Sequence record: NZ_CP120882.1
Reading direction: 5' to 3' (one strand)
DNA length: 28,293 nucleotides
Source: a plasmid
The notes beneath the pieces are model-generated. The model saw only the letters and a list, made by a program, of their open reading frames with translations. It was not told the DNA's origin and made no database searches. Position numbers and translations under genes: made by a program. Shown here in pieces: positions 4,103 through 28,293 of the stretch; position 1 is the stretch's first letter, and each line of letters starts with the position of its first letter.

Positions 4103-4444
4103 TCCAGTTCATGAAATGTGTGCGGTCTAATGCGTGTAAAGCAGTAGGAAACTGCGTGGAAATTGGTAGTAAATCGTTGTTTGTTCGTGGATTCCATTGC
4201 ATTTTGCCCTACTGCACGCCAATACACCATTTTCCTTGCGAAAAACAATGCAATCCTACTGAACCGCTGTATAGTTTCCTTATCTAATGCAATGCTGAAT
4301 AGAGGGCAGGATGTGTGAAGTAGGCCCACCATGCAAGCATGGTGATCCTCTTCACTTCCCCTTATTCGCGCCTGCGGCGCTCAACGGGGCATCCTGCCCT
4401 GCGGGGCCAGCCGGCGGCCGCCGGCAACGACAGAGGACGCCAAG
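4103..4444. other. oriT: IncP-type origin of transfer (oriT) between traK and traJ
   Basis: 4304-4402 reads GGGCAGGATGTGTGAAGTAGGCCCACC...GGTGATCCTCTTCACTTCCCCTTATTCGCGCCTGCGGCGCTCAACGGGGCATCCTGCCC, which aligns with the RK2/RP4 oriT core (the imperfect 19-bp inverted repeat plus the ATCCTG|CCC nick motif). By analogy the nick lies on the minus strand opposite 4306/4307. A second ATCCTGCCC motif is on the plus strand at 4391-4399. The traK-proximal side (4110-4300) is AT-richer, like the TraK-binding region in RP4. Confidence 0.7.
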
Positions 4445-6670: not shown

Positions 6671-6720
6671 CGATTAGCATCCGAGTTAGAAGCTAGAAGC
6701 TATATAGCAGCTAGTTAGCT
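6671..6720. repeat. Hairpin (ctcggatg...catccgag) followed by a cluster of TAGAAGCTAGAAGCTATATAGCAGCTAG repeats, related to the repeats flanking the parA/parG locus
   Basis: TAGCAGCTAG at 6704-6713 is identical to the motifs at 26738-26747 and 27707-27716. AGAAGCTAGA is the reverse complement of the TCTAGCTTCT repeats at 26688-26723. Confidence 0.5.
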
Positions 6721-6886
6721 TACACCGATGTTCAACAAAAATGGCCGGGCGCAACGGTGTCGCTCAGGTCGGGTACCGGGACAACGATTCGGCGTGTTGT
6801 CTCTGTGATGGCCCAACGCCGCCAGTTTGCCGAAAAGGCAGCAGGCCGGCGCAGCGCAGCCGCTCATCACATCGAGGTACTCGACC

Positions 6887-7672
6887 ATGAAACACGTCCG
6901 CCTTTTAGCGGCTAAAACCGCGCTCGCCGCTGCCCTGGCCGGCAGCATCATCATCACCCCGGCGCAGGCCGGCATTCCCGTCATCGACGGCGGGAACCTG
7001 GTGCAGAACGTCATGACGGCCATCGAGTCAGTGGCGCAGACGCTCAAGCAGATCGAGCAGTACCAGACCCAATTGCAGCAGTACGAGAACATGCTGCAAA
7101 ACACGATGGCCCCAGCGGCCTACATCTGGGATCAGGCGCAGTCCACCATCAACGGGCTGATGAATGCCGTCAACACGCTGGACTACTACAGGAACCAGCT
7201 CGGCAGTCTCGACGCCTACCTGGGCAAGTTCCAGGACGTGAGCTACTACCGCAGCTCGCCGTGCTTCTCGGCCGCCGGGTGCTCGGATGCCGAGCGCGCC
7301 GCGATGGAGCAAAACCGCCGCCTGGCGAGCGAGAGCCAGAAGAAGGCGAACGACGCGCTGTTCAAGGGTCTGGAGCAGCAGCAGCGCAACCTGACCGCCG
7401 ACGCTCGCCAGCTCGAACGGCTCCAGTCCGCTGCGCAGGGAGCGACCGGGCAGATGCAGGCCATCGGCTTCGCCAATCAGCTCGCTGCCAACCAAGCAAA
7501 CCAGCTTCTGCAAATCCGTGGCCTGCTGATCGCGCAGCAGAACGCCGCGACCGCCAGGATGCAGGCGCAGGCCGACCTTGAGGCGCAGCAGCAGGCCGCC
7601 GGCGCGACTTCCAGGGAATCCAGGATCGAGCGCACGGCAAGCCCGAGAAACTGGCTCGAACTGACCCGCTGA
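6887..7672 (+). CDS. trbJ: VirB5-like mating-pair-formation protein TrbJ
   Basis: Signal peptide MKHVRLLAAKTALAAALAGSIIITPAQAG. The block GIPVIDGGNLVQNVMTAIESVAQTLKQIEQYQTQLQQYENMLQNT is collinear with IncP-1 TrbJ. The ORF track's TTG start at 6827 is rejected in favour of the ATG at 6887, which has a GAGGT ribosome-binding site. Confidence 0.8.
   Translation: MKHVRLLAAKTALAAALAGSIIITPAQAGIPVIDGGNLVQNVMTAIESVAQTLKQIEQYQTQLQQYENMLQNTMAPAAYIWDQAQSTINGLMNAVNTLDYYRNQLGSLDAYLGKFQDVSYYRSSPCFSAAGCSDAERAAMEQNRRLASESQKKANDALFKGLEQQQRNLTADARQLERLQSAAQGATGQMQAIGFANQLAANQANQLLQIRGLLIAQQNAATARMQAQADLEAQQQAAGATSRESRIERTASPRNWLELTR
6904..6916. promoter_or_regulatory. KorB operator (OB): TTTAGCGGCTAAA, inside the first codons of trbJ
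   Basis: Exact OB consensus. It encodes RLLAAKT of the TrbJ signal peptide. Confidence 0.7.
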
Positions 7673-9614: not shown

Positions 9615-9872
9615 ATGAAACGTAGTGGCTTTTTCGACTGCCTGGCGCTCGACCAGGTGCAGCGGCCGGCGGTGGAGTTTGAGCAGCCTGGCGACCAATC
9701 AACCGAGCTTGATGCGGCGGCGGAAGTGGCGGCCTTCGTTGATCGCCCTGCCCCGTCTGCCATCGAGGCCACCAGGCCGGCGGCCAGGTCATCGAGCAAC
9801 AGCTACAGCGGCAGCAACAGGAACACGCCGCTGGCAGAGGCCGCCGGCATCTACAGCAGCGGCCAGCGGTAA
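9615..9872 (+). CDS. Hypothetical 85-aa ORF downstream of trbL. It could be a degenerate remnant of the next trb gene.
   Basis: ATG 3 bp after the trbL stop. No signal peptide. Ser/Ala-rich low-complexity C-terminus. Confidence 0.3.
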   Translation: MKRSGFFDCLALDQVQRPAVEFEQPGDQSTELDAAAEVAAFVDRPAPSAIEATRPAARSSSNSYSGSNRNTPLAEAAGIYSSGQR

Positions 9873-9935
9873 AGCGCGCCGGCCGGCGTGGGGCCGGCCG
9901 ACACTTCCACAACCCACCTACCACAGAGGTGAATC

Positions 9936-10169
9936 ATGGCAACTTTGAATCCTACCAATGCAATCGCAACCCAGGCAGTTCATCATGCGGCCGCGCAGCT
10001 CGCGGCCCTGGACTGGATCGACCAAGAGGCGGCGCGGCAGCTCTCGCCGATGGCGGAAGCCGTCGCCAATATGTTCATGGTGCTGTACTACCAGGCCGAG
10101 ACGGGCCAGGCCACGCGGGACGACTTCCGCCAGGCCCTGGACGCGGTGCGGCAGTCACTTACCGCGTAG
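9936..10169 (+). CDS. Hypothetical small protein (77 aa)
   Basis: AGAGGTG ribosome-binding site 6 nt upstream. Followed directly by a strong terminator. Confidence 0.45.
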   Translation: MATLNPTNAIATQAVHHAAAQLAALDWIDQEAARQLSPMAEAVANMFMVLYYQAETGQATRDDFRQALDAVRQSLTA

Positions 10170-17688: not shown

Positions 17689-18047
17689 AGTGGGCCTCTT
17701 ATCACATGGTAATACCTAGTGATAATAGCCCTTCCCTGCCCCCGAGTCCATCGCGCTGAAACTGTCTTGAAAAGGCTCTTTAAGGCTGGTGTTTTGAGCT
17801 AGGCGCATATAGATCGAGATTTGATAAATGAGCCTGTCGGGCTACTGTCGTTTTCAGAAGACGGCTGCACTGAACGTCAGAAGCCGACTGCACTATAGCA
17901 GCGGAGGGGTTGGATCCATCAGGCAACGACGGGCTGCTGCCGGCCATCAGCGGACGCAGGGAGGACTTTCCGCAACCGGCCGTTCGATGCGGCACCGATG
18001 GCCTTCGCGCAGGGGTAGTGAATCCGCCAGGATTGACTTGCGCTGCC

Positions 18048-19138: not shown

Positions 19139-19203
19139 GTTTGATGTTATGGAGCAGCAACGATGTTACGCAGCAGGGCAGTCGCCCTAAAACAAAGTTA
19201 GGC
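19139..19203. other. attI1: attI1 recombination site ending at the GTTAGGC core
   Basis: The sequence gttatggagcagcaacgatgttacgcagcagggcagtcgccctaaaacaaagttaggc is the canonical attI1. Confidence 0.8.
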
Positions 19204-19221
19204 ATCACAAAGTACAGCATC

Positions 19222-25578: not shown

Positions 25579-25730
25579 TCCGTCGCCATGCTCACCTCGC
25601 TTTGGTGCACACGAGTATTGAGCATAGTCGAGATTGGTGCAGATCACTTCTGATATTGAACTGTCAGGAGCTGGCTGCACAACAGCCATTACGCCCAATC
25701 AACTGGTGCAGTCGTCTTCTGAAAATGACA
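25579..25730. repeat. 152-bp IRt-end fragment, the outer and functional integron terminus
   Basis: Ends with the IRt 25-mer at 25706-25730. The 123-bp and 152-bp lengths match the In4 arrangement. Confidence 0.85.
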
Positions 25731-25770
25731 GCTACGATAGGCGCATTCAGGTATGCCCAAAGGAGCCAGC

Positions 25771-26676
25771 ATGAGCAGGACGAAGCCAGCAGCCGCGCCG
25801 ATGGTGGCGCGGGTCTATCTGCGCGTCAGCACCGACGCGCAAGACCTTGAACGCCAGGAAGGGATCATCACGGCCGCGAAGGCCGCCGGGTACTACGTCG
25901 CCGGCATCTACCGCGAGAAAGCCAGCGGCGCACGCGCTGACCGGCCCGAGCTGCTGCGCATGGTGGCCGACCTGCAACCGGGCGAGGTGGTCATTGCCGA
26001 GAAGATCGACCGCATCAGCCGCCTACCCTTGCCCGAGGCCGAGCGCCTGGTGGCCTCGATCCGGGCCAAGGGTGCGCGCCTGGCCGTCCCTGGCGTGGTC
26101 GATCTATCCGACCTGGCGGCCGAGGCCCAGGGCGTCGCCAAGATCGTCCTGGAATCCGTCCAGGACATGCTTTTGAAGCTGGCCCTACAGATGGCCCGCG
26201 ACGACTACGAGGACAGGCGCGAGCGGCAGCGCCAGGGCATCGAGCTGGCGAAGCGGGACGGCCGCTACAAGGGCCGGCGGGCCGATCCGAAGCTGCGCGC
26301 CCAGGTGATCGCGTTGCGCAGCATCGGCCAGAGCATCGCGGAGACTGCCAAGCTGGCCGGGTGCAGCGTGGCCCAGGTCAAACGGATTTGGGCCAGCCGT
26401 GACATGAGCCGGGCCGAGGCGGCCAGGCATGGCGCTTTCGTGGAGGACGCATTGACCGAGGCCGACGCCGGCGCGGCGGCCGACGTGGAGCAGGGCGCGG
26501 CCGAGCTGCCCGAGCCGGCTTTTCTGGACGATGAAGGCCCAGTCGCCGATCTGCCGATGCCCCCGTACCGAACCCAAAACCTGCCGCAAATCCTGGCGGC
26601 CCTCACCGATGACGAGCTGGCGACGTGGCCCGGCGACCTGGCAGACGCCGAGCGGGCGCGGCGGCGCAAACTTTAG
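25771..26676 (+). CDS. Serine recombinase/resolvase with a long C-terminal extension (about 300 aa); candidate plasmid multimer-resolution enzyme
   Basis: VYLRVSTDAQDLERQ is the catalytic-serine motif. HTH at SIAETAKLAGCSVAQVKRIW. About 110 further residues are acidic and Ala-rich. AGGAG ribosome-binding site. The gene starts only 40 bp after the integron IRt. Confidence 0.75.
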   Translation: MSRTKPAAAPMVARVYLRVSTDAQDLERQEGIITAAKAAGYYVAGIYREKASGARADRPELLRMVADLQPGEVVIAEKIDRISRLPLPEAERLVASIRAKGARLAVPGVVDLSDLAAEAQGVAKIVLESVQDMLLKLALQMARDDYEDRRERQRQGIELAKRDGRYKGRRADPKLRAQVIALRSIGQSIAETAKLAGCSVAQVKRIWASRDMSRAEAARHGAFVEDALTEADAGAAADVEQGAAELPEPAFLDDEGPVADLPMPPYRTQNLPQILAALTDDELATWPGDLADAERARRRKL

Positions 26677-26684
26677 CGGCTAAA
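26672..26684. promoter_or_regulatory. KorB operator (OB): TTTAGCGGCTAAA, overlapping the resolvase stop codon
   Basis: Exact OB consensus. Confidence 0.7.
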
Positions 26685-26687
26685 ATC

Positions 26688-26755
26688 TATCTAGCTACTA
26701 TCTTGTATCTAGCTTCTATCTTATAATCGCTGCTACCTAGCAGCTAGATAGGGGC
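26688..26755. repeat. Iteron cluster upstream of parA; candidate centromere/operator
   Basis: Direct repeats TATCTAGCT(A/T)CTATCTT occur twice. Then the palindrome GCTGCTA-CC-TAGCAGC at 26729-26744 and TAGCAGCTAGATAG. Confidence 0.5.
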
Positions 26756-26761
26756 TAAATT

Positions 26762-27394
26762 ATGGCGGCGATTGTCGCATTCGTCTCACAGAAGGGCGGC
26801 GTAGGGAAATCCACCCTGGCGCGTGCCCTTGCACGCGAAGCGGCCGCCGGCGGCTTGCGCGTGAAGGTAGCAGACCTGGATACACAGCAGGGAACTGCTG
26901 TCGATTGGCACCGCCTGCGGCTTTCTCAGGGCATTGAACCCGTGGTGTCCGTCGAGGCGTTCGCCACGGCCGCGCAGGCCCTGGAAGCGGCCAAGGGCTA
27001 CGACCTTCTCATCATCGACGGGCCGGCCCGCACCAGCTCGGCGACGCTCGACATAGCCCGCGCTGCCGATTTGATCGTCCAGCCGTCCGGCGCATCGAGG
27101 GATGACCTCATTCCGGCCGTGCGCGAGTTCCACGCGCTGACAAAGGCCGGTGTCCCGAACGACCGCCTAGCGTTCGCCCTCAACCGCATCGGCACGCCGG
27201 CGGAAGAGGTCGCGGCGCGGGTCTATTTGCAGCAGGCCGGCTACACCGTCCTGGATGGGAGCTTGCGCGACCGGCCGGCCTACCGCCAGGCGCAAAACAC
27301 CGGCCACAGCATCACGGAAACCCGCTTTGCGGGCCTGAACGAGCGGGCCGACACACTCATTCAATCGCTCATCGACCGGGTGACAAATGGCTGA
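26762..27394 (+). CDS. parA: Small Walker-type ParA partition ATPase (type Ib)
   Basis: 210 aa. Deviant Walker A motif SQKGGVGKST at the N-terminus. The size is typical of ParF/pB171 ParA-like proteins. Confidence 0.8.
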   Translation: MAAIVAFVSQKGGVGKSTLARALAREAAAGGLRVKVADLDTQQGTAVDWHRLRLSQGIEPVVSVEAFATAAQALEAAKGYDLLIIDGPARTSSATLDIARAADLIVQPSGASRDDLIPAVREFHALTKAGVPNDRLAFALNRIGTPAEEVAARVYLQQAGYTVLDGSLRDRPAYRQAQNTGHSITETRFAGLNERADTLIQSLIDRVTNG

Positions 27395-27716
27395 CGTATC
27401 CAAGCTCAAGAAACTGAAAGGCCGGCGCGACGAGCTGGGCGCACCGCCAACGCTGGACGAGGCCAGCACGAACCTGACCGCGCCGGAGGTTGCGCCGGTA
27501 GCCAGGCCGACCGCCGCCAACCCACCACCGCAAGCACCGGCGGCCAAGAAGATCGACGGCCGGAGCGCCCGCAAGACGAACCGCACGGTGCAGTTCGCCA
27601 CGCGGGTGACGCCGGAATGGGATGCCCGCATTCGCGCCCTGGCGCAGCGTGAAGGTGTGCTGCTGGTCGAGGTACTGGAAAAAGCCCTTGACCACTACGA
27701 ACAATCTAGCAGCTAG
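27387..27716 (+). CDS. ParG/ParB-like ribbon-helix-helix centromere-binding protein
   Basis: 109 aa. Overlaps the parA stop. Disordered basic N-terminus. C-terminal RTVQFATRVTPEWDARIRALAQREGVLLVEVLEKAL is the RHH fold. Confidence 0.65.
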   Translation: MADVSKLKKLKGRRDELGAPPTLDEASTNLTAPEVAPVARPTAANPPPQAPAAKKIDGRSARKTNRTVQFATRVTPEWDARIRALAQREGVLLVEVLEKALDHYEQSSS

Positions 27717-27741
27717 TTTGCTGCTAGGTAGCAGCTACATA
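27705..27741. repeat. Downstream partner repeat set: TCTAGCAGCTAG plus the inverted palindrome GCTGCTA-GG-TAGCAGC
   Basis: Mirror image of the 26729-26747 site. Overlaps the parG-like stop codon. Confidence 0.5.
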
Positions 27742-27799
27742 ATCGAAAACCGACACCTGCATTTTTCGTTAATGCTGGACACTGCTGCGAAGGTGGGGC

Positions 27800-28114
27800 A
27801 TGATTACGTTTGATTCAAAGGCTGTCATCAATCCGACCGCGTTTAAGGAGGTCGTTTTGGTGGGTGGCGTACAGGGTGCGACTGTCACCGTTGCAGAGAA
27901 GGGCCTGGTTCTGGCGCTTCGGATCGGCGGAGAAAATCGCATCCTTGGGCAGTATCGGGGTGGCCCCCGCTACTTCCGCACGATTGACGCGGCGGCGTCG
28001 TTGCTGATCCAGCACGGCATCTACCGCTTCGAGGCGGACGTGGCCGGGTGGAAGCCCAAGACGCTGACCCGCAAAGGTGGCGAGCTGCTGGGTGGCACCG
28101 GCATCGAGCCGTAA
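27800..28114 (+). CDS. Hypothetical 104-aa protein
   Basis: AGGTGG ribosome-binding site. Followed by a terminator hairpin at 28122-28147. Confidence 0.45.
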   Translation: MITFDSKAVINPTAFKEVVLVGGVQGATVTVAEKGLVLALRIGGENRILGQYRGGPRYFRTIDAAASLLIQHGIYRFEADVAGWKPKTLTRKGGELLGGTGIEP

Positions 28115-28121
28115 AAATGCA

Positions 28122-28147
28122 AAAGCCCCGTTTGGCGACGGGGCTTT
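28122..28147 (+). terminator. Rho-independent terminator hairpin (aaagccccgt-ttggcg-acggggcttt)
   Basis: Perfect 10-bp stem. Confidence 0.55.
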
Positions 28148-28216
28148 GGCGGGGGTTCCGGGCCTATCAGCTTTGGCGAGCTGGCAGACACGACAGCCGA
28201 TGAATGAGGAACGACT

Positions 28217-28228
28217 GTTTAGCTAAAC
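28217..28228. promoter_or_regulatory. KorA operator (OA): GTTTAGCTAAAC
   Basis: Exact 12-bp IncP-1 OA palindrome, 65 bp before the window end and upstream of rep if the molecule is circular. Confidence 0.65.
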
Positions 28229-28293
28229 CTCATTCTACGGCCTGACCCCTTCAATGGCAAGAGTCACGCGCGGATTCCGTGCGGGAAGGGGTT

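Follow-up and report, generated by a model that had tools for sequence, protein, structure and literature searches.

The stretch of DNA analysed here (the window; 28,293 nucleotides, NZ_CP120882.1) is, by sequence comparison, a complete plasmid of the pMATVIM-7/pPE52IMP family, and its stability block is the subject of this report. The block carries, in this order, a resolvase gene, parA, an open reading frame (ORF) of 109 amino acids (aa) and parC, and it is followed across the circular junction by rep, the first gene of the window. Over positions 25600-28293 the window matches the P. aeruginosa plasmid pSE5381-aadB, whose complete gene order it shares, at 100% identity, and pMATVIM-7-type plasmids at 97-98%. 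The block belongs to a small IncP-type mobilisable resistance plasmid. The elements described in an earlier note on this DNA were all found at, or a few bases from, the places given there; parC, the integron that splits the res region, and further operators for the regulators KorB (OB) and KorA (OA) go beyond that note. The features of the block are as follows.

25771-26676, plus strand: serine resolvase of 301 aa, with the catalytic and helix-turn-helix (HTH) core at aa 1-208
26395-26673, plus strand: C-terminal extension of the resolvase, aa 209-301 (93 aa)
26687-26760, no strand: repeat cluster A, upstream of parA; proposed promoter-operator and first centromere arm
26762-27394, plus strand: parA, encoding a 210-aa small Walker-type partition ATPase of type Ib size with a KGGVGKS Walker A motif
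27387-27716, plus strand: 109-aa ORF, candidate centromere-binding protein with a ribbon-helix-helix (RHH) domain at about aa 66-108
27704-27738, no strand: repeat cluster B, spanning the stop codon of the 109-aa ORF; proposed second centromere arm
27800-28114, plus strand: parC, the third gene of the module

The partition genes

The ParA protein (210 aa) lacks an N-terminal DNA-binding domain, as do the small ParA proteins of type Ib systems. Its matches to CbiA, AAA_31 and MipZ begin at residue 3, it scores 111.8 bits against NF041546, and its matches to Soj, MipZ and ParF chains are weak. The start of the 109-aa ORF overlaps the end of parA by 8 nucleotides (nt). The product of this ORF has no Pfam or NCBIfam match at E-values up to 0.1, and none of the 264 homologue clusters that were found contains a Pfam domain. 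Its gene nevertheless adjoins a ParA gene in 459 PLSDB plasmids, from hosts that include Xanthomonas, Pseudomonas, Klebsiella, E. coli, Salmonella, Yersinia and Acidithiobacillus, and is nearly always annotated as hypothetical; a few UniRef entries of the family bear the label "Stability/partitioning determinant". An alignment of 32 members displays a conserved N-terminal peptide (MADVSKLK..R..LG.PP.L.EAS.NL.APEVAP), a variable Pro/Ala linker in the middle, and a conserved C-terminal domain of about 45 aa (TVQFATRVTPEWDARIRAIAQREGLLLVEVLERALDAYE).

The 109-aa protein is accepted here as a ribbon-helix-helix protein on the strength of structure prediction and of profile comparison. The AlphaFold2 model folds the last 35 residues into two helices (76-89 and 93-108) with a pLDDT of about 90. 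A Foldseek search of this model against the Protein Data Bank (PDB) returned as its best match the nuclear magnetic resonance structure of ParG (1p94), with weak E-values of which none is significant, and the matches that follow are nearly all RHH proteins (CopG, Arc, MatP, AmrZ, NikA and antitoxins). Alignment of the family profile by hhalign with the 83-aa protein of pMRCP1333, a member of Pfam RHH_10 that occupies the same position in its locus, gave a probability of 80% and an E-value of 1.4e-5 and covered the strand and both helices. The family profile found no meaningful match among PDB sequences. Membership of the ParG family PF09274 was rejected, as the protein does not match that profile, and hhalign gave no signal (probability 0.1%) against the ParG-family protein of IncP-6 plasmid Rms149. 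Together these results indicate a candidate centromere binder that is ParG-like in fold and architecture and lies outside the ParG family. The pair had been described in the earlier note as being of the small-ParA / RHH-ParG type; the small ParA and the RHH fold and architecture stand, with the caveat that the protein is no member of the Pfam family of ParG.

The third gene of the module, parC, scores 121.9 bits against NF041544 (cut-off 95), and its product is 45% identical to the ParC of Rms149. Because the ParC proteins are homologous and Rms149 carries the order parA, ParG-family protein, parC, rep, the module in the window is assigned to the pRA2/IncP-6 parABC-rep type, its middle gene encoding a different RHH protein. 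A published account of this plasmid family lists parA and parC as present and parB as absent (PMC9501424). The 109-aa ORF is likely to be the centromere-binding protein that has been overlooked so far and, with its three repeat clusters, would complete the partition system. The system joins the type Ib class, with a family of RHH proteins that was previously unrecognised.

Repeat clusters on either side of the par genes

Repeats of the ATCTAGCNGCTAGAT type lie upstream of parA and, in inverted orientation, across the stop codon of the 109-aa ORF. Cluster A contains, in order, the direct repeats ATCTAGCTACT and ATCTAGCTTCT, a -10-like TATAAT (26722-26727), the palindrome GCTGCTACCTAGCAGC (26729-26744), and TAGCAGCTAGAT and TAGGGGCTA. 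Cluster B is inverted relative to cluster A and consists of ATCTAGCAGCTAG, the palindrome GCTGCTAGGTAGCAGC (27720-27735) and TAGCAGCTAC, with the units spaced by 11 bp. The 16-bp palindrome GCTGCTANNTAGCAGC occurs exactly at 26729-26744 and 27720-27735, the two copies being reverse complements of each other that differ as CC versus GG at the centre, so that the mirror orientation proposed in the earlier note is correct.

The repeats are far more frequent than chance predicts. A third match to GCTGCTANNTAGCAGC, with 2 mismatches, lies at 6696-6711, giving 3 matches in total against 0.13 expected, and TAGCAGCTAG is found exactly at 26738, 27707 and 6705. The degenerate 9-mer TAGNNGCTA/TAGCNNCTA has 12 matches against 1.9 expected, all of them within five loci that correspond to the three repeat clusters and the OB sites. 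Overlapping triplets of this 9-mer within 40 bp occur three times in the window and in none of 500 shuffles, and TAGCAGCTA with at most 1 mismatch has 22 matches against 2.8 expected. The matching clusters that had been reported upstream of parA and over the 109-aa stop codon are both present, then, and well above background.

Their positions are conserved as well. In a comparison of nine loci on unrelated replicons, whose 109-aa proteins are 49-100% identical, every locus (9/9) has clusters at the same two positions: one precedes parA, and the other spans the stop codon of the 109-aa ORF or lies just beyond it, even in plasmids without parC. The consensus unit in these loci is ATCT(A/T)GCNGC(T/A)AGAT, often spaced by 11 bp. 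The upstream cluster contains TATAAT in the window and in X. citri and Marinobacter plasmids, and TACAAT in Bordetella. Iterated sites adjoin the par operon, as in type Ib systems, in numbers above chance, at conserved positions, and with a TATAAT inside cluster A.

The sequence of the repeats also varies together with that of the protein. Among 56 further genomic loci, proteins with Q in the β-strand TVQFATRV are accompanied by TAGCnGCTA repeats and never by TTGCnGCAA. Where this Q is replaced by A or P, TTGCnGCAA is found in 9 of the 16 non-redundant loci. The direction of this covariation is that predicted for an RHH protein reading DNA through its β-strand, and it argues that the repeats are those of the 109-aa protein.

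The resolvase, its tail and the split res region

The resolvase gene is preceded by AAGGAG 5 nt upstream of its ATG, and an alternative start at 25753 would give a protein of 307 aa. In a Pfam scan of this 307-aa form (subtract 6 for the 301-aa numbering) the Resolvase domain PF00239 spans residues 21-172 and HTH_7 (PF02796) residues 183-215. The protein carries both domains of a serine resolvase and the active-site serine motif (YLRVSTDAQ), which is invariant in the alignment, and the core is invariant through QVKRIWA among 3375 homologues. The description in the earlier note was accurate as to size (about 300 aa, some 100 aa longer than Tn3-type resolvases), given the 93 extra residues among 301, and as to an acidic, Ala-rich tail: the extension is 22% Ala and 22% Asp plus Glu and has an isoelectric point (pI) of 4.2, against 9.9 for the core.

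The extension is built in three layers. A conserved helix segment at 209-243, shared by many homologues whose length is about 240 aa, leads through an acidic disordered linker to a terminal module of about 55 aa. Structure prediction of this region, which had been suggested as a check, yielded a part-folded tail: in the AlphaFold2 model residues 270-301 form three short helices (pLDDT 71-81) and residues 222-269 are disordered (pLDDT below 50). The last 55 or so residues exist in two alternative versions that are exchanged at the same junction. A search with the last 66 aa mostly retrieved free-standing ORFs of 63-67 aa in Burkholderiales and Pseudomonas, with no resolvase nearby in the genomic islands examined, and one fusion of the terminal module to an HTH_17 excisionase-like protein. 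Because the terminal module occurs free-standing without a resolvase, the protein is best described as a normal serine resolvase whose extension is, by these sequence comparisons, a fusion with a small mobile ORF.

A different reading is that the extension is an integral regulatory domain of the class of long resolvases represented by ISXc5 and Tn5044, and not an incidental fusion. The Tn3 family is documented to include resolvases about 310 aa long that carry extensions of about 110 aa (PMC12217951), and both versions of the tail are conserved among sequences that are 73-81% identical overall. This reading is nonetheless rather unlikely, given that close homologues end at 215-245 aa, that two alternative modules replace one another at a single junction, and that the terminal module stands alone or is fused to an HTH_17 protein elsewhere. 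Since long resolvases with such extensions are already known, the resolvase of the window is not a new class, and the description of its extension as unusual was an overstatement, the tails of homologues being variable and this one the product of a small-ORF fusion.

Several further observations concern the tail and its relatives. In pMAD49b (L074, 10877-11038) the alternative tail module stands alone as an ORF of about 53 aa, whose stop codon overlaps the first par iteron. In pMATVIM-7-type plasmids, which have the pMATVIM-7 version of the tail, an extra gene of 223 aa lies between the resolvase gene and parA (L014, OW849520, 2748-3419); an assignment of this gene as an Abi protein was not adopted, a Pfam match being absent. 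The free-standing 67-aa tail homologues of Burkholderiales contigs (L077-L082, 4001-4204) are found where a conserved block ends, behind a ResIII/RE_endonuc gene, and the DNA turns variable about 150 nt to their 3' side, a pattern like that of a mobile element's terminus.

The region upstream of the resolvase gene is divided by a class 1 integron of about 7.9 kb with Tn402-type ends.

17780-17845, no strand: left part of the split res/target region, with the GCTAC duplication at 17841-17845; the integron inverted repeat IRi starts at 17846
25731-25770, no strand: right part of the split res/target region, with GCTAC at 25731-25735; the integron inverted repeat IRt ends at 25730

The rejoined target sequence is contiguous in an uninterrupted relative (locus L016). 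An intact res is not found directly upstream of the resolvase gene, as the integron lies between the two halves of what is, from its position, a putative res. In pLH3.4 an independent Tn402-type end lies 36 bp upstream and marks the upstream region of the resolvase gene as a hot spot for res-hunter elements. In SGI1, a class 1 integron (In104) in the res upstream of the resolvase gene inactivates resolution (PMC12217951). Because the integron splits the res region here, multimer resolution may be impaired in this plasmid.

A third repeat cluster between traI and trbJ

Sites of the par type are also found outside the stability block.

6686-6722, no strand: third repeat cluster, flanked by the traI stop codon (6648) and the conserved trbJ leader

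The third cluster contains TAGAAGCTA twice, TAGCAGCTAG and TAGCT, and forms an inverted copy of about 46 nt of cluster A at about 80% identity. The traI-trbJ junction was compared in three backbone lineages, with junction identities of 100%, 78% and 73%. The conserved block of the junction begins at TACACCG in relatives and the DNA preceding it is lineage-specific, matching in each of the three lineages that lineage's own par repeats. In pMAD49b, whose homologue of the 109-aa protein is 68% identical, the junction carries TAGCTGCTAGAT units. Both the RHH protein and the Rep of pMRCP1333 are different, and the junction of this plasmid holds 45 nt that repeat its own par promoter region almost exactly, TATAAT box included; this sequence is distinct from the Rep_3 iteron, which lies elsewhere. 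Because each of the three lineages has its own par repeats at this spot, the junction site tracks the resident par module and is a well-supported third site; the related cluster that the earlier note had placed at the tra/trb junction (6685-6720) is real. It may be an operator for trbJKL, an extra centromere, or both.

The cluster could instead be a passive scar, that is, a partial duplication of the region upstream of parA that was left by recombination, is weakly bound or not bound, and has no function. Such an origin would account for a copy that is inverted, imperfect (about 80% over 46 nt) and devoid of a -10 box, with no promoter-like site found nearby. It is an unlikely explanation of lineage-matched par repeats at the same spot in three backbones that are only 73-78% identical there, one of them with a different centromere-binding protein, as independent scars would have had to arise at one position and match the resident par each time.

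In relatives, iteron clusters are also found after the 102-aa ORF downstream of rep, and this recurrence points to multi-site binding as a trait of the family; after the same ORF the window keeps an OB site alone, without iterons. Par-type iteron clusters after a second recombinase gene or the 102-aa ORF of relatives were located at 7310-7345 in L010, 22373-22420 in L012 and 4320-4350 in L011. The trbJ leader itself (6720-6886) is conserved from TACACCG onwards in three diverged lineages and contains paired segments such as GGGACA...TGTCTC.

Orphan KorB and KorA operators

The sequence TTTAGC(C/G)GCTAAA is the KorB operator of IncP-1 plasmids, a 13-bp palindrome (PMC2680271, PMC2848598). The window contains three exact copies, and one exact KorA operator that conforms to the published consensus (PMC2680271).

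26672-26684, no strand: OB, TTTAGCGGCTAAA, exact; contains the TAG stop codon of the resolvase gene (26674-26676)
6904-6916, no strand: OB, exact; inside codons 7-10 of trbJ
1929-1941, no strand: OB, exact; just 3' of the stop codon of the 102-aa ORF downstream of rep
28217-28228, no strand: OA, GTTTAGCTAAAC, exact IncP-1 KorA operator; between parC and rep

Shuffled sequences give 0.25 OB matches even with 2 mismatches allowed. The OA site GTTTAGCTAAAC lies 65 nt upstream of rep. In R751, for which 9 OB sites were counted in the 50 kb examined, an OB lies inside trbJ at the same codons as in the window, the TrbJ proteins being 81% identical. Searches of the window by tblastn with R751 KorB, KorA, IncC and TrbA returned nothing at E-values up to 1e-3, and the same queries against four relatives returned solely weak IncC matches, on the relatives' own ParA genes.

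The operators appear to move with the plasmid backbone. The number of exact OB sites in relatives ranges from one to five, their flanks being unrelated, and an exact OA lies between parC and rep in most of them. The 13-mer is invariant across relatives while the iterons vary. Exact OB sites are retained in pMRCP1333 despite its different Rep and different centromere-binding protein. Of the 56 genome-contig loci, the 48 that lack the rep/102-aa-ORF backbone have no OB, and neither do 2 of the 5 that possess it. The shared trbJ position in R751, the unrelated flanks, the retention in pMRCP1333 and the absence where the backbone is missing place the OB and OA sites with the backbone and not with the par module. 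Because the plasmid has no korB, the OB at the end of the resolvase gene probably does not belong to the ParA/RHH system. The operator that the earlier note had seen there is an exact KorB operator.

A reader for these sites was sought among the plasmid's own products, and each candidate is disfavoured. The 109-aa protein is disfavoured by the exact OB sites in pMRCP1333, whose centromere-binding protein and repeats differ, and Rep by their retention in the same plasmid, whose Rep is different. No KfrA homologue was detected in the OB-bearing X. fragariae plasmid pNBC2815-21, and the 102-aa ORF is present in BPP5P1 and LMG31884_p23, both of which lack OB.

The case for the 109-aa protein deserves to be set out in full, since the OB-like palindromes TTTAGCSGCTAAA could be high-affinity sites of the plasmid's own RHH protein and not KorB operators at all. 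OB and iterons have the TAGCNGCTA core in common, 11 of the 13 OB positions match the iteron palindrome TCTAGCNGCTAGA, and OB directly adjoins iterons in front of parA, as it does behind the 102-aa ORF in relatives. The distribution of OB speaks for improbability, however: it persists in pMRCP1333 with another binder and other repeats, it is missing from the 48 of 56 loci that have this protein without the backbone and from 2 of 5 with the backbone, and the 13-mer stays constant beside variable iterons. The trbJ copy shares its position with that of R751, and an exact KorA operator is present too.

The leading proposal for these sites, a tentative one that we rate somewhat below even odds, is that these plasmids may be satellites wired into a co-resident IncP-1 helper through its KorA and KorB acting in trans. 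The idea fits the sliding-clamp model, in which KorB loads at a distant OB and is latched by KorA at OA (PMC11790492). The helper's KorB would load at the OB sites that bracket par, rep and trb, KorA would latch it at the OA near rep, and the replication, partition and entry-exclusion genes of the satellite would be silenced or retuned. Alternatively, the satellite would hitch-hike on the IncC/KorB partition machinery of the helper. No report of such action in trans, and nothing relevant on orphan OB or OA sites, was found in the searchable literature.

A model for the stability block

The reading preferred here has three parts: a type Ib par operon with three sites, a resolvase with a fused tail and a split res, and OB operators that belong to the backbone. 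It draws on sequences, folds, homologies, positional conservation and covariation, and we give it a probability of roughly 0.75. For the 109-aa protein we infer all four activities that the model needs, namely DNA binding, repression, a centromere role and ATPase stimulation. In this model parA, the 109-aa ORF and parC would make up a type Ib partition operon, in which RHH dimers of the 109-aa protein would bind ATCTAGCNGCTAGAT-type repeats through the β-strand. Binding at cluster A, around the -10 box, would repress the operon and form the first centromere arm, and the inverted cluster B on the protein's own stop codon would serve as the second. The traI/trbJ cluster would be a third binding site that ties either the trbJKL region or plasmid positioning to the 109-aa protein. 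The conserved N-terminal peptide of this protein would stimulate ParA-ATP on the nucleoid so that plasmid copies move apart, as in other ParA systems. In the same model the tail of the resolvase arose by fusion with a small ORF, and the palindrome on its stop codon is a backbone KorB operator.

Several results weigh against parts of this model. The β-strand was not called by DSSP on the monomer model of the 109-aa protein, a promoter scan found no consensus sigma-70 promoter at cluster A, and the counts of half-sites against β-strand residues ignore shared ancestry. An operator role for the third cluster is weakened by its inverted orientation and the lack of a TATAAT box there in the window, and by a promoter scan of the traI/trbJ junction that found neither a consensus sigma-70 promoter nor a promoter-like site. 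The core of the earlier note, a small ParA with a ParG-like RHH protein, inverted iteron clusters and a third site, survived the comparisons of fold, profile, repeat position, covariation and par swaps between lineages. That the repeats are instead replication iterons or incompatibility elements of the adjacent Rep is very improbable: the par module does lie directly upstream of rep in this family, but the same type of repeat flanks parA and the 109-aa ORF on IncFIA RepE, pYV and Acidithiobacillus RepA replicons, and the Rep_3 iterons of pMRCP1333 (CGTGAAATCGCCCCC) differ in sequence and place from its par repeats.

Comparison with known systems

A close parallel is the ParF-ParG-parH system of TP228. 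There, too, the gene of a small ParA-type ATPase precedes that of a small RHH protein, a dimer whose N-terminal tail is flexible, and repeats upstream of the operon are both centromere and operator; ParG is also the top Foldseek match. Unlike its TP228 counterpart, the protein of the window has no PF09274 match. The parH site is made of tetramer boxes, unlike the palindromic units of 9-15 bp in the window, which has in addition a stop-codon cluster, a third site elsewhere and an extra gene, parC. The order parA, small RHH protein, parC, rep is shared with the parABC-rep module of IncP-6 (Rms149) and pRA2, and ParC is homologous. The middle protein of Rms149 is of the ParG family (PF09274), unlike that of the window, whose family has no Pfam model.

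The delta/omega system of pSM19035 is a Gram-positive system with heptad repeats. Its omega protein is an RHH centromere binder and global regulator that acts at several dispersed repeat clusters (PMC3235114), and the window resembles it in pairing a candidate RHH protein with dispersed clusters, here known from sequence. The par2 system of pB171 is a type Ib system with the order parC1-parA-parB-parC2 and repeat arrays on both sides (PMC4270457). Centromere-type arrays flank both par genes in the window as well, but the repeat sequence is unrelated, the downstream array overlaps a stop codon, and a third site is present, some 8 kb distant if the path through the replication origin is taken and about 20 kb distant by window coordinates. 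In NAH7 (IncP-9) a ParB/parS site upstream of conjugation genes links partition and transfer (PMC12421886). The window has a putative partition-protein site in a similar place, upstream of conjugation genes, although NAH7 uses a KorB-like HTH ParB and an 18-bp palindrome, and the window an RHH protein, with trbJKL alone remaining.

With the KorB/OB and KorA/OA network of IncP-1 plasmids the window shares three exact OB sites and one exact OA, the trbJ OB being positionally orthologous to that of R751, but it lacks homologues of korA, korB, incC and trbA by tblastn. The resolvase is like the long resolvases of ISXc5 and Tn5044 in having about 300 aa and a C-terminal extension, the likeness being drawn from their description (PMC12217951), and unlike them in its mosaic tail, the end of which is a separately occurring small ORF. 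The integron resembles In104 of SGI1 in being a class 1 integron in the res region upstream of a resolvase gene (PMC12217951).

Other features of the plasmid

The backbone of the plasmid comprises rep, the 102-aa ORF, kfrA, traK/J/I, trbJ/K/L, the ptaRNA1 toxin gene and a copG/relE pair, and the acquired DNA consists of a Tn3-family strAB element and the class 1 integron, with IS6100 at its end. Rfam matches above the gathering score were obtained for a traJ-II RNA upstream of traJ (4304-4408, plus strand), a PtaRNA1 antitoxin opposite the ptaRNA1 toxin gene (9872-9942, minus strand) and an AAC_AAD leader/attI site (19151-19221, plus strand). An AT-rich palindrome, aataataagaataagaatattattcttattatctta, immediately 5' of kfrA and within 2455-2500, is probably the autoregulatory operator of KfrA. 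Between parC and rep, within 28116-28260, lies a conserved promoter-like site on the minus strand (TTGCCA-17 nt-TAGAAT) that faces away from rep and whose predicted start lies at the KorA operator. The predicted minus-strand RNA, of about 105 nt, is structured (z = -4.3) and ends at an invariant hairpin 3' of parC; it could be a replication-control countertranscript.

Biological significance

This family of plasmids spreads VIM, IMP, KPC and OXA genes in Pseudomonas, Achromobacter and Enterobacterales, and the split res site explains the accumulation of resistance integrons at this spot. A protein family that lies beside ParA on at least 459 sequenced plasmids gains a name and a testable DNA motif. 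The site in front of trbJ would add an instance, drawn from nature, of a partition module coupled to a transfer module. The orphan KorA and KorB operators are the most novel lead and the part most worth an experiment: if they are functional, a mobilisable plasmid would be reading the regulatory state of its helper.

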